A stretch of 64,000 nucleotides of DNA. It comes from Candidatus Omnitrophota bacterium. Its GTDB lineage: Bacteria > Omnitrophota > Gorgyraeia > Zapsychrales > Fredricksoniimonadaceae. The stretch lies in contig CAIOPG010000009.1 of assembly GCA_903860135.1 (NCBI GenBank), positions 175,805 to 239,804 of the forward strand. The letters are read 5' to 3'. How positions within the stretch are numbered: the stretch's first letter is position 1; each line of letters opens with the position of its first letter. Both the position numbers and the translations under genes were made by a program. Below, in pieces: positions 12,768 through 39,455 of the stretch. Below the pieces are notes generated by a model, which saw only the letters and a program-made list of their open reading frames with translations, was not told where the DNA came from and ran no database searches.

Positions 12768-12783
12768 AAAGAATTGCCTCACA

Positions 12784-15327: not shown

Positions 15328-15344
15328 ACGACAACCTTTCGATG

Positions 15345-15596
15345 TTACTTTTGTTGCTTGGTTTTGTTATACAGCGAGCGGACAGTATCTGACATCTGTG
15401 CCCCTGTCTTGACCCACTTTTCAACCTTGGCCGTATCAAGTTTATAAACAGCCGGCTTCTTCGAAGGGTCGTAATGCCCCACGATCTCAAGCACCCTGCC
15501 GTCACGTGCGGACGACTTGCTGATAACAACGATGCGCCAATTGGTGTTCTTCTGGGCCGGATCGCCCGCTCTCTGCATCCTGATCTTGACTTCCAT
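15345..15596 (-). CDS. rpsP: 30S ribosomal protein S16
   Basis: 83 aa. Aligns along its length to E. coli S16 (IRxxRxG, ARDGR, EIVGxYxP, WVxxGAQMSD). Confidence 0.85.
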   Translation of the reverse strand: MEVKIRMQRAGDPAQKNTNWRIVVISKSSARDGRVLEIVGHYDPSKKPAVYKLDTAKVEKWVKTGAQMSDTVRSLYNKTKQQK

Positions 15597-15628
15597 TGCT
15601 CCTGTTTCCTTTCTTCGTTCGTTTTTGC

Positions 15629-19216: not shown

Positions 19217-19827
19217 CAGTCAATGATCCCTTTGGTCGACGGCACGATCCCCTCGCGGCGCGGATCAACCTGTGTCGCCTGGTCAAGGGCCAAGCCCAAA
19301 GCCTTAAAGACAGCCTCGACATTGGTATGCACATCATCCGAAACATTCTGGACTGTCACGCTGATCGTTGCTCCCAACGCGTGCGCAAACGATTCCATGA
19401 AATGCTCAAGATAGGTGAATGAATATTCTTCCTTACCCTTCAACTGAACAACCTTGTCTTCCTCGATGTTCAGCTTGAAATACCCGCGGCCGCTGATATC
19501 CAGCAGTACACGTGCGGTCGTGGCCTCCATCGGCGCGCCTGCCCCGCCGAAACGGCGGATGCCGGCTTTATCGCCAAGGGCTTCACGGAACGCCTTGCCC
19601 AAGACAATGCCGATATCCTCATTCGTATGATGAATATCAATGGCCGTATCCGAACATACCACGTCCAGTTCCAGATCAAAAAGGCCATGGAAAGCAAAAA
19701 GCTCGATCATATGATCAAGGAAAGCGATGCCCGTCTTGATCCGGGCACGATCACCGCGCCCGTCGACATTCAGCTTTGCCTTGATATGCGTTTCCTTGCT
19801 TTTACGTTCGATCATGGATGTTCTCAT
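19216..19827 (-). CDS. hisB: Imidazoleglycerol-phosphate dehydratase (monofunctional)
   Basis: 203 aa. IGPD motifs (HIDHHHTNEDIGI-like DIHHTNEDIGIVLG). Confidence 0.9.
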   Translation of the reverse strand: MRTSMIERKSKETHIKAKLNVDGRGDRARIKTGIAFLDHMIELFAFHGLFDLELDVVCSDTAIDIHHTNEDIGIVLGKAFREALGDKAGIRRFGGAGAPMEATTARVLLDISGRGYFKLNIEEDKVVQLKGKEEYSFTYLEHFMESFAHALGATISVTVQNVSDDVHTNVEAVFKALGLALDQATQVDPRREGIVPSTKGIID

Positions 19828-19876
19828 AAGCCTGCCCTTTCTCCCGCGCGCGTCAAGGCCGCACCTGGATCAACCT

Positions 19877-25339: not shown

Positions 25340-25368
25340 ATTATACAAAAGGAGGCTGTGATTGTCAA
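25340..25368 (-). promoter_or_regulatory. Consensus sigma70-type promoter of recA (TTGACA-N17-TATAAT)
   Basis: Minus strand reads gTTGACAatcacagcctccttttgTATAATcatcc. The -35 box (25363-25368) overlaps the stop of the upstream TMTC-like gene. The -10 box is at 25340-25345. No LexA-box-like palindrome between the -10 and the start. Confidence 0.6.
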
Positions 25369-27080
25369 CGCAACTTCAGCCCCCTCTTGCTCAATTGTAT
25401 GATCTTATCCAATCTTGGTCCATCCCCCAGAATGCTACCAATGATCTTAAGCCCCCGTGTCACGCCACCAGTGCCTTCGGCGTGCTCGAGTGCCAACAAA
25501 AAATTGATCGCCAACTCATCCGTATAATGTGAAGGCAATATCCGTTCAAGATACGTCACCGACACAGGATATTGCTTGATCGCGTAATAATAATCTGCCA
25601 TCCCCAACTGCCCATAATAAGATAATGGCACCTTATTGAATATCCGTTCAAAAGCCGCCTTCCCGTCATCCAAACGACCCAACTGTAAATAACAAACGCC
25701 AAGATAGTAATTTGAAAGCGTTGCGTCACACCCTGGATCTTTCAGGGCAAGCAAAAAATTATCTACTGCCTCTTGATATTTCTTCAATCGAAAAAACTCC
25801 GTTCCTTTAAAGAAATAGCCCATGTGGTGCTCTGGATAAGCCTTGACCCAAGCCTCACCCAGAGAGAAATTGCTCCGCCATACCAAATTACTTGTGATGG
25901 CGGGAAGAAGTAACGAAACGATGGCCGCAGAACATAAAAAATACCGCATCCCCGCCGATAAGCGACCACCCCATACCCGCCCCCAATATACAAGGAGCGT
26001 GGCCATCAAGAACGCTATACCCACAAAAGGGATATACATATAACGCAAAGCAACTGGATTGGGATTAACCCAATAAACCAAAGCCGGCAAAAAGAAAACA
26101 CACACCCATAATGCCGCCCATGAAACCTTTGTACGCCTCATTATTAAAATAATCATTGAAGCCATCAGCGTAACAACCAGAAATGCCAGACCTATCATGT
26201 CAACAGAAAGCCATGGGCGCGGCAATGGCCAATATAGAGGCGGCATAACACCAGCAGAAAGAACAAAACAGATCTCTTTTAAATAAAGTGCCACGATCTG
26301 AACAAAAACCGACATATACTCCTGCCAGCCATACCCGACAGCAAAGTTACGTATAAAACCAGTATTCTGGAAAACAAAGAAATATACATACAAATAAAAG
26401 AATGAAATAAAAAAGAACGGCCAATAGGGCCGTTGTTTTATAACCTTTGCCTCCAGCCCAAGAATCGTTCTGTCAAAGAATACAATGACCAATGGAAAGA
26501 AGAGGGCTGTCTCTTTGGAAAACAGTGCCAGAAAATAAGCTGTATACGCAAGAATGGCCCACAGCGCAGTAATCTTCTTTCGAAAATAAAGCCAGGATTG
26601 AAACGCGATCAAGAGAAAAAAACAAGCCAGCAAGTCTGATCTGTAGCCTATCGCAGCAACAGGTTCCGTATTAGCAGGATGAATAGCAAAAATAATGGCG
26701 GCTGACAAAGCTACGAGCGGTGTCGAAAGAAGCGCAACGATCTGATAAAGCAAAAGGACATTGGCCAAATGCAATACAAGACTTGTCAGATGATACCCGA
26801 AAGGGCGATTATCCCAACCCAAACAATCAAAGAAGAAACTCATCGTCGTCATAGGCCGGTAAGCTACTGACCCCGTTCCCTTGTCAGGAGAATGGCCATA
26901 CAGCACTTCATCGGGAATAACATTATACCCGGAACGGAAAATTCTAACGATATTGGACGAGTTTTTATAAAAAGAATTGTTGCCAAAGAGAGCATGATCA
27001 TCACCGGCAAAACCATTCCATAAAACACATGAAAAACACAATAGAATCAAAACAACAAGGCTGATCTTATGCTTGAACAT
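25365..27080 (-). CDS. Polytopic membrane protein of the TMTC/PMT-like GT-C glycosyltransferase type (DUF1736-like HPxNTEPV motif) with C-terminal TPR repeats
   Basis: 571 aa. About 11 TM helices, the [10 protein letters not shown] motif, and roughly 4 TPRs in the C-terminal 180 aa. Confidence 0.5.
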
Positions 27081-27092
27081 TATAGCGTCACT

Positions 27093-27839
27093 TCAACTCA
27101 AGGAATTGTTTAGGATCGCAAAAGATACAACCGCTATCGCGGCTGTATCCACTTTTAAAACATTCTCACCGAGAGTCACAGGCACCGCACCAGCTAGCAC
27201 GGCTTCGACTGCTTCCTCAGGCGTGAAATCTCCTTCAGGTCCAATAAAAAAAACAAAATCCCCTGCATTTCGGCGCGCCGCCAGCGCCATACCCAAAGAA
27301 ATCCGTTCTCCTTCAAGCCATGGGAAAAAAAGAAATTTTCCGGGAACAGCTGTCATGGCCAGCGTTTGGAAGAAAGAAACCGGTAATGTGATCTCGGGAA
27401 ACCATGGACGCTTGCACTGTTTGGCCGCGTTGAGCGCCACCCTCTGGTAACGGGCAAGTTTATGATCAGCTTTCTCGCCGTGCACGTCGTTCTCGGTCCT
27501 TGCCGTAACCATAGGGATAATACGGTCCACCCCTAGCTCGGTGCACTTTTCAATGATCGTTTCAAATTTGGTTCTTTTGGGGATGGCGCAGGCCAGCGTG
27601 ATGTGCGGCCCATGATGCCTCGGAACAACGACAAGAGATCTGATATCAACCCAGGCCGCTGTGCGTGAAACCTCCCGAAGCACCCCTTGCGCCACGCCCC
27701 CTTGCCCGTTCACGATCTCGACGCTATCGCCTGCCTTCAAGCGCAGGACACGGGTCACATGGGCAAATTCATCAGGGTCATCGAGCAAAATACGCGTATC
27801 ATGGCCGGAAAATGGATGGAAAAATCTTCCCGCAGACAC
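27093..27839 (-). CDS. rsmE: 16S rRNA (uracil1498-N3)-methyltransferase
   Basis: 248 aa. PUA-like N-terminus and SPOUT C-terminus (GPEGDFTPEE). Confidence 0.8.
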   Translation of the reverse strand: MSAGRFFHPFSGHDTRILLDDPDEFAHVTRVLRLKAGDSVEIVNGQGGVAQGVLREVSRTAAWVDIRSLVVVPRHHGPHITLACAIPKRTKFETIIEKCTELGVDRIIPMVTARTENDVHGEKADHKLARYQRVALNAAKQCKRPWFPEITLPVSFFQTLAMTAVPGKFLFFPWLEGERISLGMALAARRNAGDFVFFIGPEGDFTPEEAVEAVLAGAVPVTLGENVLKVDTAAIAVVSFAILNNSLS

Positions 27840-27841
27840 GC

Positions 27842-28474
27842 CTAATAACCCCCGGCATTTTCTCGGAAAGTGATGCTGACTTGAGGATTGTCCGTTGTGC
27901 CAGCTGTAAGTGCCCCGGCACTCACAGCCGCGCCAGCAGACGGTGTTTTTCGTCCAACGACGGTCATCTGAAAATAATATTCTCCGGTAGCCCCATCAGC
28001 CACCAGCACAGGATCAGCAATATTGGCATGTGTAAACATATCTTTGACAACATACCCCTCAAAGGTATCTCCCGTAGTACAAGTACCCACTGCCGTCAAT
28101 TCACAACTATATACCGCTGTCTGATCAAGATCACCCGGCTTACTGAAGCAAGTCCAGTTGTCATCTGTGTAAATCTCGGGTGTGAATGCTCCCGATACCT
28201 GGACATCATGCCGAAAACAAAGTGACGAATTGGTGTTATTCAAGTAAATATTTACGCCTGTATCCGAAGGCGATCCATGAAGGCTCCGCACACTCATCCG
28301 TATCTTGTTCACTAAGTATTGAGCTTGGATGTTAATCAAGGCTTCCGAAGAAACATTACTGCCACTCTTGCGCAGTCCATAATCCACACTAAAAATGGCT
28401 GCCATCATGAAGGTGACAATAATGCTCGCCACAATAAGTTCAGCCATTGTAACGGCAGAAGAAGATACTTTCAT
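27842..28474 (-). CDS. Minor (pseudo)pilin-like protein with non-canonical class III leader
   Basis: Inferred start MKVSSSAVTMAELIVASIIV at 28474, giving a 4-nt overlap with the upstream gene. Glu at +5 and a hydrophobic helix, then a Thr/Gly-rich C-terminus. Confidence 0.5.
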   Translation of the reverse strand: MKVSSSAVTMAELIVASIIVTFMMAAIFSVDYGLRKSGSNVSSEALINIQAQYLVNKIRMSVRSLHGSPSDTGVNIYLNNTNSSLCFRHDVQVSGAFTPEIYTDDNWTCFSKPGDLDQTAVYSCELTAVGTCTTGDTFEGYVVKDMFTHANIADPVLVADGATGEYYFQMTVVGRKTPSAGAAVSAGALTAGTTDNPQVSITFRENAGGY

Positions 28475-28476
28475 AA

Positions 28477-28830
28477 TCACCAATTTACCGTCACAGTAAC
28501 CTGGCGCGTTGTCCCGAAGCCAGCTACAACCGTGTAACTGGCTGATGTCATCGAGGTGCAATTGGGATAGGATGCCACAGTAACAGCATGCGCACCGAGC
28601 GTAAGCACGCCCGTACTCCATGTAGAACCCGCCACCGACTTATTCAAGCTATCCAGTATCTCTTTACCGCATAACCCCGCAACCATCCTCGCTTCCGATC
28701 CACGCCCCGAGACCCGCGTTTGGACAATGGTAGCCAAAACCCCCGCAGATGCCACCACAAAAATAACAGACGCGACAATAACCTCGGTCATAGAAAAACC
28801 TGCCTGATCCGTATAAAATTTCATGGACAA
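28477..28830 (-). CDS. Minor pilin / pseudopilin (prepilin-type N-terminal cleavage/methylation domain)
   Basis: Leader ...DQAG|FSMTEVIVASVIFV with Glu+5. Confidence 0.6.
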   Translation of the reverse strand: MSMKFYTDQAGFSMTEVIVASVIFVVASAGVLATIVQTRVSGRGSEARMVAGLCGKEILDSLNKSVAGSTWSTGVLTLGAHAVTVASYPNCTSMTSASYTVVAGFGTTRQVTVTVNW

Positions 28831-29210
28831 TTAGCCCCCGCGCATGAAGGATTAGTTCCGGCCACAACTGGACTTGCTAATGTGACCGTGACCGTCAGAC
28901 CAGATCCAATACTGCCCACACATGTCCCGCTACCACAGGAATACGACACCCCGTCAGCAATAATATGTGTAGCCAACGCCGTATTGATAGCATTGATATC
29001 AGCAGCTACCAGATTAGTGCCGTTGTTATACAAACGATACTGGGCATTGGCGGCATGAATGATACTCAAATTATCCACAACAGAACGCCCGCGCGTGCGA
29101 TCAATCGTCTTAATAAACTGCGGGATAGCCATACCAACCAATATTCCGGAAATGACAAAAATAACCATTAACTCAATCATGGTAAAAGCTTCATTATAAA
29201 GTTTAGTCAT
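28821..29210 (-). CDS. Type IV pilin, family A paralog 1 (C-terminal Cys loop)
   Basis: Inferred start MTKLYNEA|FTMIELMVIFV. The ATG overlaps the stop of paralog A2 (ATGA). Motifs IIHAANA, AINTAL and a C-terminal C..G.NCP. Confidence 0.7.
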   Translation of the reverse strand: MTKLYNEAFTMIELMVIFVISGILVGMAIPQFIKTIDRTRGRSVVDNLSIIHAANAQYRLYNNGTNLVAADINAINTALATHIIADGVSYSCGSGTCVGSIGSGLTVTVTLASPVVAGTNPSCAGANCP

Positions 29211-29581
29211 GGACAACTTGTTCCTGTACATGTCGCAACGCCCGAACTTGTGTTCGGAGTTGTTACAACAAATCCCGTACCCGTAGCCGTGCATTCCGTA
29301 CCTGAAGAACAAGAATATGTGGCACCATCAGCCTTAATATTTAACCCGAGAGCCGTATTTATGGCAGCCACATCTCCAGCCGTAGTATTAGCTCCAGAAC
29401 GTGAAAGAAAGAGGGCATTAGCCGCATGAATAATCGAAATGTTCGTCATGGCCGAACGCGCCTTTGACCGTAAAATAGTTTTTGAAAACTGCGGAACAGC
29501 AAATGCGGCAATGATTGAAATGATGCTCAAAACAACAATAAGTTCAATCAGCGTAAACCCGCTACGCATAAAATACCTCAT
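29207..29581 (-). CDS. Type IV pilin, family A paralog 2
   Basis: MRYFMRSG|FTLIELIVVL leader. Same IIHAANA/AINTAL motifs and a C-terminal CTGTSCP. Confidence 0.7.
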   Translation of the reverse strand: MRYFMRSGFTLIELIVVLSIISIIAAFAVPQFSKTILRSKARSAMTNISIIHAANALFLSRSGANTTAGDVAAINTALGLNIKADGATYSCSSGTECTATGTGFVVTTPNTSSGVATCTGTSCP

Positions 29582-29979
29582 GGGCAACTTGAACCAGAAC
29601 AAGATGGATTTGAGTCACTTAACGCAGTAGCCAACGTGAGCGTCTCTGTAAACCCTGAACCTGTCGCAAGGCATGTCCCTGAATCAGTACAGGAATAAGT
29701 CACTCCATTCGACGTGATCTTTAACTCCAGAGCCGTATTAATGGCCACTAAATTTCCGGCTGTAGATGCATTAACATTTGAATTATTATTACGTAAACGA
29801 TAATACCCATTAGCCGCGTGGATCAGATTAAGATTGGCGATCCCTGCACGTGCATAGGCACGCTTGGTACTTTTTGAAAGAAGCGTGGTCGCAAAAATTG
29901 CTAAAATACCAACAAGCGCCAACACAATTATCATTTCAATGAGCGTAAAAGCCTGACGCATAGTTGGTCTCATGCGCAC
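29578..29979 (-). CDS. Type IV pilin, family A paralog 3
   Basis: MRMRPTMRQA|FTLIEMIIVL. LIHAANG, AINTAL and a C-terminal CSGSSCP. Confidence 0.7.
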   Translation of the reverse strand: MRMRPTMRQAFTLIEMIIVLALVGILAIFATTLLSKSTKRAYARAGIANLNLIHAANGYYRLRNNNSNVNASTAGNLVAINTALELKITSNGVTYSCTDSGTCLATGSGFTETLTLATALSDSNPSCSGSSCP

Positions 29980-30389
29980 GGCGTATTAGGACAAATTTTC
30001 TTAAGTGTGTCCGGACATGAACCACACGAAAAAGCACCCGCTGCAGACACACTAACAGTATATGAACCTGTCGCTGGCTGAACAGCGGATTTTATCGTCA
30101 ATGAAACAGCACCCGTTGATGTATTGCACACAGGTGCCGCAAAATTCGTCGGCGTAACCGTTACATCCAGATTGGCACAAGCGGCACTGGTATCATAGGT
30201 GCTTTTTTCAAGATTATACCTTATCTGAGCCGCGTTGAGCGTGTTAAGGACATTAATCCCTTCAGTAAAGATCGTTTGATCCTTCGCTCCTACCATACGC
30301 GGTACAGCCAACGACGCCAATACACCAATGATAACAATCACGACGATAATTTCAATTAATGTAAAAGCAGACGATCGTATTATATTCAT
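29970..30389 (-). CDS. Type IV pilin (distinct, 5 Cys)
   Basis: MNIIRSSA|FTLIEIIVVIVIIGVLA. C-terminal CGSCP...CPNTPCA. Confidence 0.7.
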   Translation of the reverse strand: MNIIRSSAFTLIEIIVVIVIIGVLASLAVPRMVGAKDQTIFTEGINVLNTLNAAQIRYNLEKSTYDTSAACANLDVTVTPTNFAAPVCNTSTGAVSLTIKSAVQPATGSYTVSVSAAGAFSCGSCPDTLKKICPNTPCA

Positions 30390-30401
30390 ACCATTCCAAA
30401 A

Positions 30402-30818
30402 CTAATTCTTCAATGTTGAAAAAATCCCACCCTTTATCTTTGTAACAGTTCCCGCAGGGGCATTCAGCCTAAGCGTGATCGTATCAGCAACTCCTGCACC
30501 ACCTTTTAAAGTAGCTGTCGCACCGCAAGCAGATGCATTCGCACATTCAGTAGCGGTAAATGAATACGTAAAATTAGTTGATGCCGTTGGAAATGAATAG
30601 CCCGATATTGCTGTTATATTATTACATGCCGTATAATCTTCACTGTTCTGAATATAACATTCCTGGACTTTGCGCATCAAAACGCCAAGCTGCATATAAG
30701 CCTCTGCCGCTTTGGCAATATTCACCTGAGCGCTAAGACGCGGCAAAGCTACTGCGGCCAAAACACCAATGATGATAACAACAATGATGATCTCGATTAG
30801 TGTAAAGCCTTTTTTCAT
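30402..30818 (-). CDS. Type IV major pilin, family B paralog 1
   Basis: MKKG|FTLIEIIIVVIIIGVLAAVALP. Near-identical to the next two genes. Ends KGGIFSTLKN. Confidence 0.8.
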   Translation of the reverse strand: MKKGFTLIEIIIVVIIIGVLAAVALPRLSAQVNIAKAAEAYMQLGVLMRKVQECYIQNSEDYTACNNITAISGYSFPTASTNFTYSFTATECANASACGATATLKGGAGVADTITLRLNAPAGTVTKIKGGIFSTLKN

Positions 30819-30836
30819 TACTTACCCCATTTCCAA

Positions 30837-31256
30837 TTAATTCTTTAATGTAGAGAAAATACCGCCCTTGGTTTTTGTAACAGTTCCCGCAGGGGCATTC
30901 AGGGTAAGCGTGATCGTATCAGCAACTCCTGCACCACCTTTTAAAGTAGCTGTCGCACCGCAAGCAGATGCATTCGCACATTCAGTAGCGGTAAATGAAT
31001 AGGTAAAATTACTTGATGCCGTTGGAAATGAATAGCCCGATATTGCTGTTACATTATTACATGCCGTATAATCTTCACTGTTCTGAATATAACATTCCTG
31101 GACTTTGCGCATCAAAACACCAAGCTGCATATAAGCCTCTGCCGCTTTGGCAATATTCACCTGAGCGCTAAGACGCGGCAGTGCTACTGCGGCCAAAACA
31201 CCAATGATGATAACAACAATGATGATCTCGATTAGTGTAAAACCCTTTTTTTTCAT
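30837..31256 (-). CDS. Type IV major pilin, family B paralog 2
   Basis: MKKKG|FTLIE... Differs from paralog 1 at only a few residues. Confidence 0.8.
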   Translation of the reverse strand: MKKKGFTLIEIIIVVIIIGVLAAVALPRLSAQVNIAKAAEAYMQLGVLMRKVQECYIQNSEDYTACNNVTAISGYSFPTASSNFTYSFTATECANASACGATATLKGGAGVADTITLTLNAPAGTVTKTKGGIFSTLKN

Positions 31257-31313
31257 ACATTTCCTTTTTTAGTGTTTTATTAGTATGTTCCTGCATTAAT
31301 AATATTTTTGGAA

Positions 31314-31730
31314 TTAATTCTTCAAAGTTGAAAAAATACCACCCTTTGTTTTTGTAACGGTTCCCGCAGGGGCATTCAGCGTAAGCGTGATAACATCCGC
31401 CGCCGCACCACCTTTTAAAGTAGCTGTCGCACCGCAAGCAGATGCATTCGCACATTCAGTAGCGGTAAATGCATATGTAAAATTACTCGATCCAGTTGGA
31501 AAGGAATAACCAGATATCGCTGTTACATTATTGCATGCCGCATAATCTTCACTATTCTGAACATAACATTCTTGGACTTTGCGCATCAAAACACCAAGCT
31601 GCATATAAGCCTCTGCCGCTTTGGCAATATTCACCTGAGCGCTAAGACGCGGCAACGCTACTGCGGCCAAAACACCGATAATGATAACAACAATGATGAT
31701 CTCGATTAGTGTAAAACCTTTTTTTTTCAT
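31314..31730 (-). CDS. Type IV major pilin, family B paralog 3
   Basis: MKKKG|FTLIE... Near-identical again. Preceded by a conserved 57-nt upstream region. Confidence 0.8.
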   Translation of the reverse strand: MKKKGFTLIEIIIVVIIIGVLAAVALPRLSAQVNIAKAAEAYMQLGVLMRKVQECYVQNSEDYAACNNVTAISGYSFPTGSSNFTYAFTATECANASACGATATLKGGAAADVITLTLNAPAGTVTKTKGGIFSTLKN

Positions 31731-31787
31731 ACATTTCCTTTTTTAGTGTTTTATTAATATCTTCCTGAATTAAAAATATTTTTAAAA

Positions 31788-32207
31788 TTAATTCTTCAAA
31801 GTTGAGAAAATACCCCCCTTTGTTTTTGTAATCGAACCAGCTGAAATATCCAGCTTAAGAGTGATAACATCCGCAGCGTTCGCATTGGTTCCACTGAATG
31901 AAGCTTGACCTACACAATTATTAGCATCTGGACACAGAGAAGAATTAAAATTATATGTAAAATTAGGAGTTACTGGAAATGTATAACCTGATAGAGCTGT
32001 CACCTCGTTGCATCCCGCCATGATGTCACCATTTTGAATATAACATTCCTGGACTTTGCGCATCAGAACACCCAGTTGCCTATAGGCCTCAACGGCTTTT
32101 GTAGTATTAACCTGATTCGTAACACGAGGCATAGCTATCGCTGCTAAGACTCCAATAATTATAACAACAATTATTACTTCAATCAATGTAAACCCATTTT
32201 TATACAC
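31788..32207 (-). CDS. Type IV major pilin, family B paralog 4 (diverged; GTG start)
   Basis: The ORF-track M is a GTG. The more likely start is the second GTG, giving leader (M)YKNG|FTLIEVIIVVIIIGVLAA. Same C-terminus KTKGGIFSTLKN. Confidence 0.65.
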   Translation of the reverse strand: MYKNGFTLIEVIIVVIIIGVLAAIAMPRVTNQVNTTKAVEAYRQLGVLMRKVQECYIQNGDIMAGCNEVTALSGYTFPVTPNFTYNFNSSLCPDANNCVGQASFSGTNANAADVITLKLDISAGSITKTKGGIFSTLKN

Positions 32208-32281
32208 GTATATCCTACCCACATGTTATCTGTATACAAATATGACATATTTAAATAAATAAAGCGAATATAAATAATTAA

Positions 32282-33508
32282 TTATCCTCCGGTAGATAAA
32301 GAAAGTATAGGTAGAAACATCGCGATAACAATTAGACCTATTACACCACCCATGATAACAAGCATAACGGGTTCAATAAGAATGCTGAATCGCTTCAAAA
32401 ATTCTTCAACATTAGCTTTATAATATATGGCGACATTATTCAACATCTTGCCAAGCTCACCGGTTTCCTCGCCAACACGGATCATCTGCACCGTCATCGA
32501 AGGGAAAAATCCACTTCTTTCCATTGGATCTGCCAAAAGCTGCCCCTCACGTACGGCTTCACGCACATTTCTTATAACTTCCGCACAAACCACATTATCC
32601 ACCAGTCTCTCCGATATCTCCAAAGAATAAAGAATGGGGACACCGCTTTCCATAAGGGTGGACATTTGAGATGTAAACTTCTCAATTACAATTAATTTTA
32701 TCATACCACCGAAAATAGGAACTTTAAAAAGAAAAGTCTCAAATTGCTTTCTTCCAAGAGGTGTTTTAATGTAATTCATGAAAAGAAAAATGCTTCCGGC
32801 CCCTCCAGCAATAAGTATAAAAAATCTCTCTTTCAATAATTTGAAAATTGACATCATTATGACCGTGATAGTCGGGAGCTTGATATCCATATCAGAAAAA
32901 ATACGTTCAAATGTAGGCCCGACAAAAAGAGCGAAAAACAAAACAGCTCCGATACAAATAAAACAAAGAACCATCGGATAAACAAGGGCTCCTATAATAG
33001 TAGACTTGAACTTGGCTGTATCCTCCATATATTGTGTCAACTTGTTGAGAACTTTCGGTAATGTACCAGATGCTTCACCAACCTCAATAAGACTGACCCA
33101 AAAAGCAGTAAACACCTTGGGATATTTTGAAATAGCGCTACTGAAAGTACGACCCTGTTCAACATCTGTGACTACCGCCTCAATGATGACGGTTAACCCA
33201 CGACTTTCCAGCTGAGAGCTGATGATCTTGAGCGATCGCATTAACAAAACACCTGCTCCCATCATCGCAGAAAGTTGACGCGCAAAAGAAACAACATCAT
33301 TTAATGAAATATTATTGTGCGAAAACACCCGCTTCTTTGCAACTGACGTCACAGGCTGTTGATTCTCAACAAACTGTTTTACAGCGGTTACAAAAAGCCC
33401 TTTTTGCTGTGCAAACTTAACAGCCTGCTGATCATTAATGGACTCTACAACCTCATTAAATACATGCCCTGAATTATCTTTAGCAGTAACAAGAAATTTG
33501 GCCATCAA
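32282..33508 (-). CDS. pilC: Type IV pilus / T2SS platform protein (PilC/GspF family, two T2SSF domains)
   Basis: 408 aa. Duplicated GspF-like halves, each followed by TM helices. Confidence 0.85.
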   Translation of the reverse strand: MMAKFLVTAKDNSGHVFNEVVESINDQQAVKFAQQKGLFVTAVKQFVENQQPVTSVAKKRVFSHNNISLNDVVSFARQLSAMMGAGVLLMRSLKIISSQLESRGLTVIIEAVVTDVEQGRTFSSAISKYPKVFTAFWVSLIEVGEASGTLPKVLNKLTQYMEDTAKFKSTIIGALVYPMVLCFICIGAVLFFALFVGPTFERIFSDMDIKLPTITVIMMSIFKLLKERFFILIAGGAGSIFLFMNYIKTPLGRKQFETFLFKVPIFGGMIKLIVIEKFTSQMSTLMESGVPILYSLEISERLVDNVVCAEVIRNVREAVREGQLLADPMERSGFFPSMTVQMIRVGEETGELGKMLNNVAIYYKANVEEFLKRFSILIEPVMLVIMGGVIGLIVIAMFLPILSLSTGG

Positions 33509-33523
33509 TTTCCCCAGATCAAT

Positions 33524-35233
33524 TTATATAACAATAGATAAAATTTCCTCAAGGCTCGTGACACCTTCTTCAACCTTCTTCATCCCAACTTCAAAAAGTG
33601 TCGCCATTCCAGCTTTAGATGCTGCGTCCTTCAATTCGTCATAGGAAACATTGTTACCGATCATACGCCGTATAACATCATTAATGGCAAGAACCTCTGA
33701 TACGACCATGCGTCCCCTGTATCCGGTGTGCCCGCATTTATCGCACCCTTTAGCGCGATAAATCAAATCGGTAGACAACTTGATAGACCCCAGATCTTCC
33801 GGCCTCGGTTCATAGGGCTCTTTGCAATCGGCGCATAACTTACGCGCTAAGCGCTGGCTCACAATCATCGTTAATGACGGTGTTAATAAATATGAGGGGA
33901 CACCTATATCCATCAAGCGGCTTATCGCTGACGGTGCGTCATTGGTATGCAGTGTTGAAAGGACAAAGTGACCTGTTAATGCCGCACGCACACATATCTC
34001 TGCTGTCTCAAGATCACGTATTTCACCAACCATAATGATATCCGGATCCTGTCGAAGAAACGATCGTAACGCCTGTGCAAATCCAAAGCCAATATCAGGA
34101 CGCACATGAACCTGGTTAATTCCATCAATGCGGAACTCAACAGGATCTTCTGCTGTCATAATATTCTTGGTGCGATCAAAAACTTCAGAAAGAGAAGAAT
34201 AAAGGGTCGTCGACTTACCACTACCCGTAGGTCCTGTTATAAGAAAAAGACCATACGGAACTTTAAGTGCTTTACGGATGAGTTCTAACTGGGACGCATT
34301 AAATCCAAGCGTAGCCAAATCAAGTTTTACTGCATTCTTATCCAGGATACGCATAACCACTTTCTCTCCCCAAACGGTAGGAACGGTGGACACACGCAGA
34401 TCAACAACACGGTTTTGATCAAACTTTACAGAAATACGCCCATCCTGCGGCAATCGCCTCTCGGCAATGTCAAGCCTAGAAATGATCTTAATGCGCGATA
34501 CGATCGAAGCATGAAGATGTTTTGCCGGCGGAGGGATTTGATAAAGATCACCGTCGATACGATAACGAAGTTCGATCTTGTCCTTAAAAGGTTCGATATG
34601 AATATCACTTGCCCGGTCATCAATAGCCTGCCTGATAATAAGATCCACAAGCTTGATGATCGGCGCTTCTTCGGCTGTTGCGATCAACCTGTCAAGACTT
34701 AACTCCGACTCAGATTTATCATCACCGGATGTTGAGAAATTACTCGAGTCATTCTGCGCTCTTTCAACCGCCTTTCCCCAAGCACCACCCTCATCGGCCA
34801 GATAAAACCGCTCCAATGATTTTAGAATATCGGTACGTGTCGCAATGACAAAGTTTATTTCACAACCAGTCATCTTTTTCAAATTATCGATCATAATAAG
34901 ATCAAATGGATTAAAGATCGCGCATGTCAGTGAATTACCATTCCGATTAAGTAACAATACAAGATTATCTACAGCATACTGATACGAAATAAGCTTTTCA
35001 AGGCCCTGCCCTTTTTGAGGATTCAATAGGCCTGAAGCTTCGGAGGCATATGGAATAAGAAGCTGTGTCCCAAGAGCCACAGCCAAGTCGCTTTCATTAA
35101 TAAATCCCATTTTGACCAAAATTTCTCCGACATGACTCTTGTCGGTCTTTTGGGCATCTATAGCAGACTGGAACTGGGCTTCGGTAATTAAGCCCTTTTT
35201 AATAAGTATTTCACCAAGCTTTAACCGTGCCAT
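33524..35233 (-). CDS. pilB: Type IV pilus assembly / T2SS ATPase (PilB/MshE/GspE family) with N-terminal MshEN c-di-GMP-binding domain
   Basis: 569 aa. N-terminal tandem 24-aa MshEN motifs (KLGEILIKKGLITEAQFQSAIDAQ, a 5-aa spacer, HVGEILVKMGFINESDLAVALGTQ). Walker A GPTGSGKST. C-terminal tetracysteine CADC...CDKC. Confidence 0.9.
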   Translation of the reverse strand: MARLKLGEILIKKGLITEAQFQSAIDAQKTDKSHVGEILVKMGFINESDLAVALGTQLLIPYASEASGLLNPQKGQGLEKLISYQYAVDNLVLLLNRNGNSLTCAIFNPFDLIMIDNLKKMTGCEINFVIATRTDILKSLERFYLADEGGAWGKAVERAQNDSSNFSTSGDDKSESELSLDRLIATAEEAPIIKLVDLIIRQAIDDRASDIHIEPFKDKIELRYRIDGDLYQIPPPAKHLHASIVSRIKIISRLDIAERRLPQDGRISVKFDQNRVVDLRVSTVPTVWGEKVVMRILDKNAVKLDLATLGFNASQLELIRKALKVPYGLFLITGPTGSGKSTTLYSSLSEVFDRTKNIMTAEDPVEFRIDGINQVHVRPDIGFGFAQALRSFLRQDPDIIMVGEIRDLETAEICVRAALTGHFVLSTLHTNDAPSAISRLMDIGVPSYLLTPSLTMIVSQRLARKLCADCKEPYEPRPEDLGSIKLSTDLIYRAKGCDKCGHTGYRGRMVVSEVLAINDVIRRMIGNNVSYDELKDAASKAGMATLFEVGMKKVEEGVTSLEEILSIVI

Positions 35234-35242
35234 AATTTAATC

Positions 35243-36745
35243 CTATTTCTTTTGTACACTCATAGAGTCCATGGCAGAACGAATAATGCTCTGTCTTATC
35301 ACACCGCTACTTTCGCGAATTCCAAGATCAGCAGGAACAGTGTCAACAACGAAATCACTGCCAGGATCCATGACACGGGGGGTAATAAAAATAAGGAGCT
35401 CCCTGTCTTTGGTAGTCGTAGTATCGTGACGGAACACACGCCCGAGAAAAGGAATGTCTCCTAAGACCGGAAGTTTTGTCTGAACTTTTTGTTTCTCAGA
35501 ACGTAACAATCCTCCGAGAACAACAGTTTCACCCGAATGTATCCTCATTTTAACCTTAGCACTACGGATCTCTGTGTCCTTAAAAGTCACCCCGCTATAA
35601 GTTCCACCCAAACGCGCAACAACCACGCGTGGTGAAACAGCCAGTAAAATATCACCTGTCATCAAATTTAACTGAGGCGTGACCGTCAACGTAATCCCCG
35701 TCTCAACTCGTTCAGGTTCAACAGTGGATCCTTGCGTTATTGTCGCCGCTGCCGTCACTTTAACACCAATAGCTTCCGACGCAGTAATCTTAATCTGTGC
35801 CGTTTCATTATTCATGGTCCAAATTCTTGGGCGCGCTAAATTCCTAGCATCTGTTGACGTCTTTAAAAACTGTAACATAGCCGAAAAAGCATTTCCGCCC
35901 ATCGCGCCCTGTGAATACGTAACCTCTGTGCCCCCCTTACTAAGTGCATTCTTTTGGTCAAGAGGGAAATAAAAACTCCTCCCTCCCAGTCCTTTGAAAT
36001 CATATAAGGTGTTGCCAAACTTAACACCTATCTCATCAGCTACTTCCTTAGAAACATCTATCATCTGGACTTCAATCAATATCTGGGCAACCGGCACATC
36101 CAGTTTAGCCAATGTTCGTTCGATCAAAGGAAAATTTGTATCTTCATCAGAAATGATCAGGCTGTTGGTCCGTGAATCTTCAGCGATCTTGGCCGAAGCT
36201 GTTAATACTGTTTTCAAAATATCCACGAGAGCAACGCTCGTCGTTACTGTATTGCTCCCAGCACTCGACGATCCATTACCCCCCCCTTCTTCTGCGGTAA
36301 TTCCGAATGTTGATTGCAACTTTGAAGATGCAACAGTAGCATATTTTAAAGGATAAACACGCGTTATGATATTCTTTTCAGCCTTGATATTATCGATCAT
36401 CAAAATATTGTCATTATTATCATATGAATAAGAAAGTCCATTTGCCGTCAAAATTTTTTTCAAAGCATCCTCAACAGGAACAGCATCAAGAAAAAGTGTT
36501 ATAGGGTCGGTTTTAACAGCGTCTGAAACAATAAAATTGGCACCTATCTGACGAGAGAAGGCCTTCAAAACATCCCTGATATCTGCATTCTTGAAATCAA
36601 GGGAAACAAGTTGAGAATATTGTGGAAGTATAAAACTGTTCTGACTACCAGCTGAAGTAGTGGCAGAAAAAACTTGAGTAAATAAAGAAATTTGAATAAT
36701 ATTGGTAAGTAAAAATATAAATAAATATTTATTTTTTAAACCCAT
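35243..36745 (-). CDS. pilQ: Secretin (PilQ/GspD family)
   Basis: 500 aa. Signal peptide and N-domains. C-terminal secretin core VVLGGLLRSEKQKVQTKLPVLGDIPFLGRVF. Confidence 0.85.
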   Translation of the reverse strand: MGLKNKYLFIFLLTNIIQISLFTQVFSATTSAGSQNSFILPQYSQLVSLDFKNADIRDVLKAFSRQIGANFIVSDAVKTDPITLFLDAVPVEDALKKILTANGLSYSYDNNDNILMIDNIKAEKNIITRVYPLKYATVASSKLQSTFGITAEEGGGNGSSSAGSNTVTTSVALVDILKTVLTASAKIAEDSRTNSLIISDEDTNFPLIERTLAKLDVPVAQILIEVQMIDVSKEVADEIGVKFGNTLYDFKGLGGRSFYFPLDQKNALSKGGTEVTYSQGAMGGNAFSAMLQFLKTSTDARNLARPRIWTMNNETAQIKITASEAIGVKVTAAATITQGSTVEPERVETGITLTVTPQLNLMTGDILLAVSPRVVVARLGGTYSGVTFKDTEIRSAKVKMRIHSGETVVLGGLLRSEKQKVQTKLPVLGDIPFLGRVFRHDTTTTKDRELLIFITPRVMDPGSDFVVDTVPADLGIRESSGVIRQSIIRSAMDSMSVQKK

Positions 36746-36749
36746 ACTA

Positions 36750-37220
36750 TCAATCTTTCAATAATAACTTGTAAAGAAATTCGTTGTAATCTATTTCCAC
36801 ACGGCCTTTGCGGATAGCCAAAATCCTTACCCCCTCTGATCTATCCCCCAAACCCAATATATTTCCATTTAAAATAACCATTGGATTCCTTGTTTTATAA
36901 AATATTCCTGTCACTTTCAGCACAGGCAACGAGGCTATTGATAATTTCCTTACAGGTTGCGCTGAGGGTATCGCAACAAAGTGCTTTATTTCAGGAATAA
37001 CAGCAACTATCGGTCTATCTACTACTGGCTTAACTAAATTATCAGCTTCCTTGCGAAAATCTTTACTAACAAGATCTGGTCTGGCTTTAAACGGATGGAA
37101 AGGCTCCCCAAGAGACTCTATCATCATTTCAAACGGAAGCTTATTAGTCTCATTGGCGTAAGAAAGAGTTGAATTAAAATGAAATAATTGAAAACTATAG
37201 ATAAAAAGAATATTATACAT
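36750..37220 (-). CDS. PilP/GspC-like inner-membrane lipoprotein-like component (weak)
   Basis: Short TM/signal region then a beta-rich C-terminus (LKVTGIFYKTRNPMVILNG..LGDRSEGVRILAI). Sits between PilO-like and the secretin. The start is inferred after the pilO stop. Confidence 0.35.
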   Translation of the reverse strand: MYNILFIYSFQLFHFNSTLSYANETNKLPFEMMIESLGEPFHPFKARPDLVSKDFRKEADNLVKPVVDRPIVAVIPEIKHFVAIPSAQPVRKLSIASLPVLKVTGIFYKTRNPMVILNGNILGLGDRSEGVRILAIRKGRVEIDYNEFLYKLLLKD

Positions 37221-37236
37221 TAAAAAAAGATGATGC

Positions 37237-37866
37237 CTACTTCTTTTTAAAATTTTTATGTTCATTATCTTCCACCAGTTGAAGCAACGAAATGGTAACA
37301 TCCAGCGTCATCGCATCCGTCTGGACTCCTGAATTAACCGGATTGTACTTAATCAACAGGCTATCCAATTTGATCATGTACCCGGAAGATTCCATATCAT
37401 GAACAAATAATAGCATATCCTTGACATTAAGGGAAGAAGCACTAAAACTCATACAAATAGAACGAAAAAAACCATCATTGCTAGTCTGCAATGGATTAAA
37501 AGCATCAATTGTAATTCGTCGCCGCGTGGCACGCCCTGTAACATAAGATATAAAATCAGCCTTGACCAATCCCAAAGGCATCTTGCACATATAATCAGTC
37601 AGATATTTGTTGCTTTGCTCAAGATCCTGGATAGGCTGTCTTTTTGATTGCAAAATCTTTTTTCTCGACGCAAGAGACTGATATTGATTAAAATTTTTAG
37701 TTGTAAGAAAAACTATTACACAAAATCCCAATAAAACAATCAAAGAATTAGTCGCTAAAACTAAATTCTGATTTACATAATGGTTACAATCCTTAATAAA
37801 TTTTGAAGGATTATTTAGATATATTTCGAAATTCTTTAAATCATCAAGATTCATTTCGCCTCGCAC
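37237..37866 (-). CDS. PilO-like inner-membrane pilus alignment protein (weak)
   Basis: 209 aa with a single TM near residue 45 and a coiled-coil-like region. Position is between pilMN and the pilP-like gene. Confidence 0.4.
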   Translation of the reverse strand: MRGEMNLDDLKNFEIYLNNPSKFIKDCNHYVNQNLVLATNSLIVLLGFCVIVFLTTKNFNQYQSLASRKKILQSKRQPIQDLEQSNKYLTDYMCKMPLGLVKADFISYVTGRATRRRITIDAFNPLQTSNDGFFRSICMSFSASSLNVKDMLLFVHDMESSGYMIKLDSLLIKYNPVNSGVQTDAMTLDVTISLLQLVEDNEHKNFKKK

Positions 37867-39455
37867 GTAATCGAAAACGCTGTGACTTTTCTATTATCAT
37901 ATTCTCGAACCTGTAAAGAAACAATCTTAATTTGTGTGAAATTAGTGGCGAACAAATTATCGCTATTTAAAGCATTAAAGAAATGATTAACCCTTTCAAA
38001 TTCTATATTGTTGTCCTTCAAAGACACATACCCCGAAAAGGTCATTGCCGTCTTGGTCTGAAGTGAATAATAATCAACCTCTTTGTTCCCGGGCTCAGGG
38101 ACCTTGCGCGCCGAAACAGGCTCATCTTTAAAAGACAAACTAACAGACTCAAGCCAAAATCCGGATGGCAGTCGTTTGACCAGCCGCACCAACATCTTTG
38201 TCGCCCGTGCATCGAAAGGCAATGATTTCAATGAAAATAACTTCTTGACATTCTTCATTTTCTTCTGAACGGCGTCTGACTCATCTATATCAACGTATTC
38301 CCCGATCTCCTGCTCAAGATTAACAACTTCCTGTCTAAACTTAGACAGAAGCTGATCAGCAAAGAATGCAACAGAAAAGATCAGTGTAAAAACACCGGCC
38401 CCCACCGCCAAGGGCAAAACCAATGCTTGCCTCCTCTGGTCAATTTCAACTTGCTTGAGAGAAACCTGCTGTTTGGAACCTTCAAACAAATTAAAGTCAA
38501 TAACAGTAACCACTTTACTCATCATGGCCACGCCGTAGGCATACACAGCCGCCATTGTATTGCAATCATTGTGATCTACAAGTCTAAAAATATCAACAAT
38601 CTCAACATTGACCCCGAGTTCCTCTCCCATCTTGTCCCACAAAGCATTATTTCCGCCAATGGATATGGCCACCATTCTCTGGACTTCCTCCCCGCCATAC
38701 TGACGCAAGAAGAATTCGGAAGAAATACGGATCTCATTGAAAACTTTGGAACGTAGCTCATCATCGATCTGAAGAGTGCCAACACCCTGATGCACACCTC
38801 CCTGAAGATTAAACTCACGGATAAACTTGACATACCCTTTTTCACAAATAAGGAGTTCTCCGATATAACCATCGACATAAACAATCGCCGTTAATTCATC
38901 GGGATCAACGATCTTTCTAAAAACCAATGCACGGTAAAGACTAGCCGACGCCGGTTCACTGTAAACAACATTTATACCTGCTTGCATTAAAGCATCCGCA
39001 TGTTTTTCAAAAACATCTTTACGGATAGCAACAAATATAATGCCAATCTGCCGCGGATTACTTCCTAGAATATTCGAAGGAAAATATGTGTACGACAACT
39101 CATCAATTGGGAAAGGAATATACTTCTTGGCTTCGAAGATAACAACATCCTGTATCTCGCTTGACTTCATCCACGGAATACTGAACCAGCGAATAATAAT
39201 ATCTTTTGAAGGGATAGAAAGAAATGTTTCCTGCGTTGAAAAACCTTTATTTCGAACAGATTTTTGCAGTGCATCTAGAATCTGCATATCATGCGGTAAA
39301 GACTTCTTGTCAGCAGTGGAAGCCACGTCTTCCGGCGATACAAAAGGAACAAATGTCCCTATGGCGGGTGCGTTGCTCTCCAGTTGAACCAGCGTGAATC
39401 CGCTTGATCCCGAGTAAACCCCTAATCGCTTCTCACTGGCCATACCCAACCTCAT
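37851..39455 (-). CDS. pilM: PilM-PilN fusion (actin-like ATPase domain + C-terminal TM/PilN-like periplasmic region)
   Basis: 534 aa. A PilM-like actin fold in the first ~350 aa, then the TM helix ALVLPLAVGAGVFTLIFSVAFF and a ~150-aa C-terminal region. The likely start is the SD-preceded ATG at 39443. Confidence 0.65.
   Translation of the reverse strand: MRLGMASEKRLGVYSGSSGFTLVQLESNAPAIGTFVPFVSPEDVASTADKKSLPHDMQILDALQKSVRNKGFSTQETFLSIPSKDIIIRWFSIPWMKSSEIQDVVIFEAKKYIPFPIDELSYTYFPSNILGSNPRQIGIIFVAIRKDVFEKHADALMQAGINVVYSEPASASLYRALVFRKIVDPDELTAIVYVDGYIGELLICEKGYVKFIREFNLQGGVHQGVGTLQIDDELRSKVFNEIRISSEFFLRQYGGEEVQRMVAISIGGNNALWDKMGEELGVNVEIVDIFRLVDHNDCNTMAAVYAYGVAMMSKVVTVIDFNLFEGSKQQVSLKQVEIDQRRQALVLPLAVGAGVFTLIFSVAFFADQLLSKFRQEVVNLEQEIGEYVDIDESDAVQKKMKNVKKLFSLKSLPFDARATKMLVRLVKRLPSGFWLESVSLSFKDEPVSARKVPEPGNKEVDYYSLQTKTAMTFSGYVSLKDNNIEFERVNHFFNALNSDNLFATNFTQIKIVSLQVREYDNRKVTAFSITCEAK

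Follow-up and report, generated by a model that had tools for sequence, protein, structure and literature searches.

A GT-C glycosyltransferase with a periplasmic TPR domain as a candidate O-glycosylation enzyme for type IV pilins in an Omnitrophota bacterium

The gene at positions 25365-27080 of the minus strand of the window analysed here (a 64 kb stretch of DNA from an uncultured Omnitrophota bacterium, taken as a whole) very probably encodes a GT-C membrane enzyme with a periplasmic TPR domain. Its fold, topology, motif conservation and gene-neighbourhood statistics identify the product as an enzyme of the PMT_2/TMTC-like GT-C type, resembling TfpW and the TMTCs, and not as a new kind of system. 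Among possible acceptors, the type IV pilins whose genes lie just upstream are, on circumstantial grounds, the best candidates, which makes the enzyme a credible candidate for pilin glycosylation. We consider O-glycosylation of protein to be its probable activity. That the pilins are the acceptor is quite possible, with our judgement leaning slightly the other way, and the complete proposal, in which a periplasmic GT-C/TPR enzyme uses a lipid-linked donor to O-glycosylate the type IV pilins of the locus, is held tentatively. The case for pilin glycosylation is nonetheless stronger than the argument made for it in the initial annotation, where TfpW was not named.

Results

The gene is a 571-residue open reading frame with an ATG start, its coordinates, which include the stop codon, being exactly those of the initial annotation, and the roughly 11 transmembrane helices and C-terminal TPRs described there were borne out by structure prediction. 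The AlphaFold2 model contains 11 membrane helices within a catalytic membrane domain with a cytoplasmic N-terminus (residues 1-405; 25866..27080, minus strand), and ten further helices at residues 404-570, which pair into about five helical hairpins and make up the C-terminal TPR domain (residues 406-571; 25365..25865, minus strand). Pfam detects two to three of the repeats, with 28.2 bits for TPR_2 (cut-off 27). The N-terminus is placed inside and the C-terminus and TPR domain in the periplasm because lysine and arginine account for 11 of the 34 residues in the short cytoplasmic loops and for 2 of the 30 in the short periplasmic loops. The protein has the features of the GT-C superfamily: a domain that crosses the membrane many times around the conserved helical core of the GT-C fold, and an acidic motif, D27-D28, directly after TM1 in the first extracytoplasmic loop.

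Conservation of the active-site motifs was counted in 49 homologs, with the 12 closest as a subset, and motif patterns were counted in 122 family ORFs. The eukaryotic TMTC1-4 proteins (CAZy GT105) likewise have 11 TM helices followed by lumenal TPRs (PMC7801869), and their seven motifs, M1-M7, are DD, SHKSYRP, RxD, KE(T/Q)xxT, DW, PxxP and ERxxY (PMC7801869 Table 4). Full-length prokaryotic homologs of the TMTCs, as yet uncharacterised, are mentioned in the same paper. The key residues of five of the seven motifs are kept here: DD (M1), the YRP core of M2, RxD (M3), KET (M4) and RxxY (M7), all encoded on the minus strand. The D27-D28 pair in periplasmic loop 1 (26997..27002), equivalent to M1 and to the DDX of TfpW, is at least 90% conserved in the 49 homologs, and a DD lies near the N-terminus in 111 of the 122 family ORFs; its catalytic role is described in PMC7801869 and in the TfpW preprint (bioRxiv 10.1101/2020.04.19.049825). 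In the same loop, Y74-R75-P76 (26853..26861) has a P76 that is invariant in the 49 homologs, and all three residues are invariant in the 12 closest. R147-S-D149 (26634..26642) follows the same pattern, R147 being invariant in the full set and D149 in the subset. K189-E190-T191 (26508..26516), with K189 invariant in the 49 homologs, may bind phosphate and metal by analogy with the TMTCs (PMC7801869). In periplasmic loop 5, R346-Y-M-Y349 (26034..26045), which matches the motif assigned to donor phosphate contact in M7, has an invariant Y349, with R346 and P351 at least 90% conserved in the 49 homologs. The invariance or near-invariance of DD, KE and RxxY across the family indicates purifying selection on catalysis.

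Unlike the TMTCs, the enzyme lacks M5 (DW, in the DUF1736 loop) and keeps half of M6, as P332 only. In the TM7-TM8 loop, glycine takes the place of the acidic residue of DW/DY, to which models of TMTCs give the part of a metal ligand: in a BLASTP alignment, 'LSADY' of the relative P0074 falls on 'LSAG'. This loop is about 55 residues long in the model, and alignment to P0074 places in it a degenerate copy of the family motif Y-x6-P-F-x5-8-P (Y266..P281; 26238..26285, minus strand), which reads Y266-x6-V273-L-x5-P280-P281, with valine in place of the first proline. The family consensus resembles YX6PFX7P of TfpW periplasmic loop 4, a motif from which the enzyme departs at V273; a looser pattern of this type occurs in 29 of the 122 family ORFs and the strict one in 1.

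Assignment to PMT_2 is by transitive homology only, because homologs match the profile and the protein itself does not. At E<=0.1, a Pfam scan returned TPRs only, with no match to PF08409, PMT (PF02366), PMT_2 (PF13231) or MIR, and TPRs were also the only matches in NCBIfam, whose models for ArnT and other lipid A families were not hit. PADLOC gave no match, nor did a plasmid tblastn search with the TM domain. Against PDB sequences, a profile of the TM domain had zero matches, and phmmer and a full-length profile gave nothing useful, the latter being flooded by TPR proteins. Among the 49 homologs, PMT_2 is matched by 14 (best 6e-14) and PMT by 2; P0002, 61% identical to the enzyme, scores 29.5 bits for PMT_2 over an aligned region of 98-242 (gathering cut-off 26.1). 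The motif HPANTEPV noted initially is present in periplasmic loop 2, within the PMT_2-like region (residues 134-141; 26658..26681, minus strand), with H134 and P135 invariant and E139 and V141 at least 90% conserved in the 49 homologs. Its description as 'DUF1736-like' was mistaken, as TMTC_DUF1736 (PF08409), carried by more distant members of the family (P0070 and P0074), maps about 100 residues downstream to the TM7-TM8 loop, which is also its published position (PMC7801869). Of the architecture proposed initially, the 11 TM helices and the periplasmic C-terminal TPRs of the TMTC type are present; the traits of ArnT, namely a match to its family HMM, 13 TM helices and a non-TPR periplasmic domain, are not. 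Searching cluster representatives by phmmer with the membrane domain alone gave a family of 39,022 clusters at 50% identity, spread over many phyla, in which tandem arrays are common and reach 7 copies. Several homologs are named 'protein O-mannosyl-transferase' by JGI.

The closest characterised precedent, and the one known pilin-glycosylating enzyme of this kind, is TfpW of Pseudomonas aeruginosa Pa5196/PA7. It is a GT-C pilin D-arabinofuranosyltransferase of 646 aa with 11 predicted TM helices, in which periplasmic loop 1 carries a DDX motif that is essential and the C-terminus forms a TPR domain in the periplasm. ArnT is its best template, its gene adjoins pilA, and O-glycosylation of pilin Ser/Thr is proven (all from bioRxiv 10.1101/2020.04.19.049825). 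Compared by that description, our 571-aa enzyme shares the 11 TM helices, the DDx in periplasmic loop 1, the periplasmic C-terminal TPRs, an ArnT-like fold and an encoding together with pilin genes. Unlike tfpW, its gene is not immediately 3' of the major pilin gene, from which it is separated by rsmE and six minor pilin-like genes, and D-Araf genes (DprE1/DprE2/UbiA-type) are absent nearby. A possible TfpW-like D-Araf pathway at the homolog locus L024 was rejected: UbiA and GT2 genes are present there, followed by an ABC-2 transporter, and we did not infer D-Araf because DprE1/DprE2 are missing from it.

Upstream of the gene, which stands last in the pilus gene cluster, and all on the minus strand, lie rsmE (16S rRNA m3U1498 methyltransferase; 27093..27839; Pfam Methyltrans_RNA 1.5e-41 and NCBIfam RsmE), ten prepilin-type ORFs as candidate acceptors (27842..32222; N_methyl or GFxxxE matches and regex detection) and a block of type IV pilus machinery (32282..39455; Pfam and homology to the syntenic relative L001). 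The ten prepilin ORFs comprise four tandem major-pilin paralogs (30402-32222) and six pilin-like ORFs. The machinery block holds PilC-like (32282-33508) and PilB-like (33524-35233) genes, assigned by homology to the T2SSF and T2SSE proteins of L001, respectively (the pair of tblastn identities is 78% and 66%), a secretin gene (35243-36745; Pfam Secretin) and a PilM-like gene (37851-39455; Pfam PilM_2). Two ORFs without assigned function lie between the last two.

The initial description of the gene as two genes from the pilin arrays on the same strand holds as to the ten prepilin ORFs and their strand, and needs qualifying on three points: rsmE intervenes, the major-pilin paralogs are about 3.3 kb away, and shared strand is uninformative because every identified gene of the window is on the minus strand. 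The intergenic gaps are short (2 nt between the pilin-like ORF and rsmE, 12 nt between rsmE and the enzyme gene), and no terminator-like site was found within the pilin-rsmE-GT segment. A perfect sigma-70 consensus, TTGACA-17-TATAAT, spans the stop codon (25340..25368, minus strand; 12/12 matches in a promoter scan) and is likely to be a separate promoter for recA, so that recA need not share the transcription unit of the enzyme. GC3 is 0.45 in the gene, compared with 0.30-0.50 in the pilus block and 0.60-0.68 in recA, alaS and the control secDF; the low value as a composition artefact of membrane proteins is ruled out by secDF, itself a membrane protein with a GC3 of 0.68. The pilins were correctly described as Ser/Thr-rich, with Ser+Thr making up 19-30% of the last 80 residues of the prepilin ORFs and about 10% in neighbouring proteins. 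The suggested search for polyprenyl-phosphate sugar synthase genes came back empty for the 64 kb window, which holds no such GT2 gene and no flippase or sugar-nucleotide gene, nor any LPS or polysaccharide gene near the enzyme.

The order pilins-rsmE-GT-recA is preserved in relatives down to 44% identity of the enzyme. Locus L026 keeps pilins-rsmE-GT with a different gene downstream, and in L099 four genes for membrane proteins, of which three are GT-C-like, come after the pilins and before rsmE-recA. Among close relatives, synteny spans the whole block including recA, recX, alaS and his genes, and since housekeeping genes are included, the conserved order could be inherited and not functional. 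More distant loci also show linkage: L034 reads pilC-pilSR-pilA-pilA-GTx3, in L046 a pilin gene and a GT gene stand alone as a pair, L074 and L080 are pilin-linked too, and in L034, L046 and L074 the glycosyltransferase gene is directly downstream of a major pilin gene. The 'pilins' of L014 belong to a cluster of T2SS pseudopilins encoded on the opposite strand, which we counted as weak evidence of linkage. The 80 genome loci contain 9 prepilin clusters, 7 of them no further than 1.5 kb from a family gene (binomial P = 5.8e-4), and in 72 of the 80 prepilin genes are absent up to a distance of 10 kb; among inspected homologs at 30-41% identity (P0007, P0009, P0012, P0015, P0016), none has pilin neighbours. 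Pilin-linked members are scattered over the family and form no clade. Pilin linkage is thus a property of a minority of members, and it is recurrent, found in several phyla and statistically non-random.

Discussion

The architecture described above suggests how this enzyme might work. The protein would act in the inner membrane, with D27-D28 as the catalytic pair in the first periplasmic loop and the putative donor-binding residues Y74-R75-P76, R147/D149, K189-E190 and R346/Y349 gathered at the periplasmic face. If it works like every GT-C enzyme characterised, it would take the sugar from a polyprenyl-phosphate donor flipped to the periplasmic side, a bacterial polyprenyl-phosphate sugar being expected here as against the Dol-P-Man of TMTCs, and would pass it to whichever acceptor the TPR domain holds. 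We infer the lipid-linked donor, the O-linkage to protein and the pilins as target. The likeliest acceptors would be Ser/Thr residues of the pilins encoded just upstream, as for TfpW, and the pilins would then be modified in the inner membrane, prior to their assembly.

As first put forward, pilin glycosylation drew on the architecture, on proximity and on the frequent O-glycosylation of type IV pilins; it is now supported by the non-random, recurrent linkage and the TfpW precedent, and weakened by the many members without pilin neighbours, the scatter of the linked ones, the intervening rsmE, the mistaken DUF1736 attribution, the missing acidic DW/DY residue and the lack of donor-sugar genes in the window. 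A somewhat unlikely alternative keeps the same mechanism of protein O-glycosylation and directs it to other periplasmic, outer-membrane or surface proteins, the enzyme being a bacterial counterpart of the protein-specific TMTC/PMT enzymes and its adjacency to pilus genes a matter of inherited order. The huge, multi-paralogous family, with its 39,022 representatives and arrays of up to 7 copies, fits such a role, as do the roughly 90% of loci that lack pilin neighbours, the lack of monophyly among pilin-linked members and the synteny of the entire recA, recX, alaS and his block in close relatives. Yet prepilin clusters concentrate next to family genes, independent pilA-GT arrangements exist in other phyla, and the GC3 of the gene is low like that of the pilus block and unlike that of its housekeeping flank, all of which argues against this alternative.

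An ArnT/RgtA-like or polymerase-like GT-C enzyme acting on a non-protein periplasmic acceptor (lipid A or LPS core, another glycolipid, peptidoglycan or exopolysaccharide), with the TPRs serving complex assembly, is improbable. The acceptor of ArnT (GT83) is lipid A, and that enzyme has its own periplasmic C-terminal domain where ours has TPRs. The NCBIfam scan matched no ArnT or lipid A model, LPS and polysaccharide genes are absent near the gene within the window, and the TPRs fused to glycosyltransferases in TMTC, TfpW and OGT recognise protein acceptors (PMC7801869; TfpW preprint). It is more improbable still that the protein is a non-catalytic pilus assembly factor, either a membrane-anchored TPR protein of the PilF/PilW type or a degenerate GT-C scaffold like PIG-U/GAB1: the PilF/PilW pilotin model TIGR02521 scores 23.3 bits, far under its 154-bit cut-off, the TPR matches are generic, an 11-TM enzyme domain is present, and the catalytic residues are conserved throughout the family. 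Nor is the protein an O-antigen ligase, the identity that the initial annotation named as fatal to its proposal, as it has neither a Wzy_C domain nor the WaaL-like fold of PglL, TfpO and WaaL.

If glycosylation of the pilins is indeed its function, the range of TfpW-type GT-C pilin glycosylation, now a few Proteobacteria, would come to include Omnitrophota and further uncultured phyla, and there would be a first functional handle on a family of unannotated 'TPR repeat proteins' that number in the tens of thousands; if it is not, the gene encodes just another routine GT-C enzyme. Glycans on pilins change how cells adhere, how they assemble pili and how susceptible they are to phages, effects that bear on the predatory or epibiotic lifestyle proposed for Omnitrophota, in which type IV pili are believed to attach the cell to its host or prey. 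The family also has its architecture and its active-site motifs in common with the products of the human disease genes TMTC1-4, whose recognition of substrates is poorly understood.

A broader scenario, unlikely as a whole and offered as speculation, would make this bacterial GT-C/TPR family the equivalent of the TMTCs in prokaryotes and perhaps their origin, its members O-glycosylating specific proteins of the periplasm under the guidance of their TPRs. Recruitment of sub-lineages to pilins would have happened repeatedly, the DW-less Omnitrophota variant would glycosylate a battery of pilin paralogs, and the arrays would reflect a diversified specificity for acceptor or sugar, for example under phage pressure.

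Other glycosylation systems stand further from the enzyme. The fungal and mycobacterial PMTs (GT39) have the PF02366 domain and, in a large lumenal loop, the MIR domain; it matches neither, and its TM7-TM8 loop has only about 55 residues. The classical pilin O-glycosylation enzymes, often encoded beside pilA, are the O-oligosaccharyltransferases PglL, TfpO (PilO) and PglS. The cyanobacterial pilin 'Ogt' was rejected as a relative, being a cytoplasmic GT41 enzyme and not a GT-C. The mechanism proposed here equals that of the streptococcal GtrB/PgtC2 and PgfS/PgfM1 pairs, in which a GT-A enzyme makes an Und-P-sugar and a GT-C enzyme transfers the sugar to extracytoplasmic Ser/Thr-rich regions, whereas the streptococcal GT-Cs differ in belonging to the YfhO family, lacking TPRs, occurring in Gram-positive hosts and modifying many substrates (PMC12041528).

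Fold, topology and conserved motifs

The 571-aa membrane protein encoded at 25365-27080 on the minus strand (an ATG-initiated ORF in the ORF list) belongs to the known TfpW/TMTC-like GT-C-TPR glycosyltransferases, TfpW being the Pseudomonas aeruginosa GT-C pilin glycosyltransferase and TMTC1-4 the eukaryotic O-mannosyltransferases. Searched alone, the query returned only TPR models from Pfam and NCBIfam and only TPR proteins among PDB sequences. A homolog search recovered 170 relatives, the closest from Candidatus Omnitrophota MAGs at 61% identity; many carry precomputed PMT_2 matches, some PMT or TMTC_DUF1736, and several the JGI label "protein O-mannosyl-transferase". Individual scans of 49 homologs found PMT_2 in 14 (best 6e-14) and PMT in 2, and in homolog P0002 (61% identical) the match lies above the PMT_2 gathering score in a region that aligns with query residues ~90-235. 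A confident AlphaFold2 model (pLDDT 93, pTM 0.92) built from the homolog alignment contains 11 membrane helices followed by ten helices that form about five TPR-like hairpins (residues 404-570), in agreement with the approximately 11 transmembrane helices and C-terminal TPRs of the initial annotation. K/R account for 11 of 34 residues in the short cytoplasmic loops and for 2 of 30 in the short periplasmic ones. By the positive-inside rule this distribution makes the N-terminus cytoplasmic and the TPR domain periplasmic, the same topology as that of TMTCs and TfpW.

Alignments of 49, 25 and 12 homologs revealed invariant or nearly invariant residues at D27-D28, Y74-R75-P76, H97, H104, H134-P135, E139, V141, R147 (with D149), K189 (with E190), R346, Y349 and P351. 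Compared with the seven TMTC motifs, M1-M7, of Eisenhaber et al. (Table 4, PMC7801869), the query retains M1 DD in EL1 (D27-D28), the YRP core of M2 SHKSYRP in EL1, M3 RxD in EL2 (R147-S-D149), K-E-T of M4 KE(T/Q)xxT in EL3, and R and Y of M7 ERxxY in EL5; only P332 remains of M6 PxxP in TM9, and M5 DW, in the DUF1736 loop EL4, is absent. At the M5 position the DUF1736-positive homolog P0074 reads LSADY and the query and its close relatives LSAG, and on these motifs the query appears to be a variant without DW within the group. The HPANTEPV motif, earlier called DUF1736-like, is real and conserved but sits in the second periplasmic loop, in the PMT_2-like region; DUF1736 is the TM7-TM8 loop, ~100 residues further on (homolog alignments; PMC7801869). 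Apart from this attribution and an argument from strand, the initial annotation was largely correct, and its interpretation of the fold is upheld.

Comparison with characterized systems

By analogy, TfpW of P. aeruginosa is probably the best functional precedent. Its gene follows pilA, and O-linked attachment of D-arabinofuranose (D-Araf) to pilin Ser/Thr depends on it; the enzyme has an essential DDX motif in periplasmic loop 1, a YX6PFX7P motif in loop 4 and a periplasmic C-terminal TPR domain, with ArnT as the best modelling template (bioRxiv 10.1101/2020.04.19.049825). Judged by that published description the query has the same architecture, and in the equivalent loop the family consensus, Y-x6-P-F-x5-8-P, is similar to YX6PFX7P, with the first proline lost in the query. 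TMTC1-4 likewise share the architecture and most motifs, whereas ArnT and the PMTs share only the fold. PglL/TfpO form a different family, to which the query has no match, and the streptococcal GtrB/PgtC2 and Pgf systems use the same mechanism with another GT-C family (PMC12041528).

Gene neighbourhood and the possible pilin link

The GT gene is closely packed, starting 12 nt past the stop of rsmE, a 16S rRNA methyltransferase gene (27093-27839; Pfam 1.5e-41; NCBIfam), upstream of which lie ten prepilin-type ORFs (27842-32222; Pfam/NCBIfam and a signal-peptide regex) and then, in order, PilC-like, PilB-like, secretin, two unknown and PilM-like ORFs. Downstream, its stop lies 16 nt from the longest recA ORF and ~70 nt from the likely recA start (MSEVKK). 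The longest recA ORF (TTG at 25348) is probably over-extended, the likely start being the ATG at 25294.

Several observations favour a link to the pilins. A promoter scan found a 12/12 sigma-70 consensus (TTGACA-17-TATAAT) at 25340-25368 on the minus strand, overlapping the GT stop codon directly upstream of recA and predicted to give recA its own promoter, and detected no terminator-like site between pilins, rsmE and the GT gene; this predicted arrangement would favour the link. So does GC3, which is 0.45 in the GT gene and 0.30-0.50 in the pilus block, against 0.60-0.68 in recA, alaS and the membrane control secDF. A class-III signal-peptide regex that recovers 10/10 window pilins identified nine prepilin clusters over 80 genome loci; the distance to a family gene is at most 1.5 kb for seven of them and 5-10 kb for none (binomial P = 5.8e-4 vs uniform spread). 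Locus L034 (2753-13608) is the clearest TfpW-like arrangement among those found, with PilC, a PilS-TM/sigma-54 activator fusion (PilS/PilR-like regulator), two pilins, three tandem GT-C/TPR genes and a radical-SAM/SPASM gene. Elsewhere, a single pilin lies 90 nt upstream of GT among unrelated metabolic genes (L046), an N_methyl protein gene 130 nt upstream in a planctomycetotal locus (L074), and L080 combines a pilin, an HD protein, GT and a sugar-nucleotide dehydratase-like gene. The distant Omnitrophota locus L026 repeats pilins-rsmE-GT with another gene downstream; in L099 four membrane-protein genes directly follow the pilins, before rsmE-recA, three of them GT-C-like (one PMT_2 protein and two family members).

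Against the link, the whole block is syntenic among close relatives, including recA, recX, alaS and his genes, and thus looks like inherited gene order. Relatives at 30-41% identity (P0007, P0012, P0009, P0015, P0016) occupy unrelated gene contexts, 72 of the 80 loci lack a prepilin ORF within 10 kb, and a pairwise identity matrix showed no clustering of pilin-linked members. The argument that GT gene and pilins share a strand is uninformative, since the minus strand carries all the genes identified in the window. Taken together, the pilins are a plausible, unproven target.

Beyond the fold, topology, motif conservation and neighbourhood statistics, which the analysis itself shows, we infer donor, O-linkage and acceptor as follows. 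Attaching a sugar to polyprenyl phosphate would fall to a cytoplasmic GT2 enzyme encoded at another locus, and bringing it to the periplasmic side to a flippase. There, K189/E190 and R346/Y349 of the GT-C domain would bind the donor phosphate, D27/D28 would activate the Ser/Thr hydroxyl of an acceptor protein, and the TPR domain would present that protein. The 64-kb window contains no GT2, flippase or sugar gene; the D-Araf genes of P. aeruginosa are likewise unlinked to tfpW. The upstream pilins are the best candidate acceptors, being membrane-anchored with Ser/Thr-rich globular domains in the periplasm. That they are Ser/Thr-rich, as initially noted, holds: Ser+Thr make up 19-30% of their last 80 residues vs ~10% in neighbouring proteins.

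The pilins comprise four tandem major-pilin paralogs of 138-144 aa, three nearly identical (30402-32222, minus strand), followed by six more divergent pilin-like ORFs (27842-30389, minus strand); several pilin-like ORFs end in a Cys-rich "C..G..CP" tail. The listed coordinates of two pilin-like ORFs, of 259 and 117 aa (27842-28830, minus strand), overlap by ~145 nt; because the 259-aa ORF reaches its prepilin motif after 55 residues, translation probably starts at the internal Met just before MKVSSSAVTMAEL.

A low-GC block spans ~25400-44100 (GC 0.34-0.48, GC3 0.30-0.50; background GC 0.52-0.55) and contains the GT gene, pilins, pilus machinery, ExbB/ExbD and an 827-aa TPR protein, with rsmE intermediate (GC3 0.52). 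It could represent a surface-structure island that was acquired horizontally or is under different selection. The interval from the PilM-like gene to uvrA, immediately next to the pilus cluster, contains the ExbD-like and ExbB-like genes and the gene for the 827-aa all-TPR protein (40498-44070, minus strand).

Family size and distribution

At E<=1e-3, phmmer with the membrane domain only matched 39,022 cluster representatives, of which 7,293 also reach E<=1e-10, and a genome scan confirmed at least 549 relatives among the 600 pattern matches listed, from Omnitrophota, Planctomycetota (including anammox genera), Nitrospirota, Desulfobacterota, Elusimicrobiota, Acidobacteriota and others. Full-length GT-plus-TPR homologs have already been remarked in "not yet well characterized prokaryotes" (PMC7801869). 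Of most value is the pilin-linked subset of this very large unannotated family, through which bacterial pilin glycosylation and the TMTC enzymes can be connected in a testable way.

Tandem arrays are frequent, with up to seven copies on one Omnitrophota chromosome. Four to seven paralogs stand in tandem on one strand in L083 (CP070807.1, Omnitrophota chromosome, 1272-19950), L042, L040 and L049, suggesting that acceptor or donor specificity has diversified rapidly. Where the window has a single copy, close relative L001 (JGI Ga0114951_10005067; RecA 93% identical) has two in tandem (7523-10988), whose TM domains are 72% identical to each other. On two Omnitrophota-like contigs, a homolog overlaps the stop of a gene for a 625-aa PilZ-domain protein (L004, 8127-11776) or lies downstream of a Peptidase_M1/Omp85 fusion protein gene (L087, 5170-9767), contexts suggesting that some paralogs have partners other than pilins.
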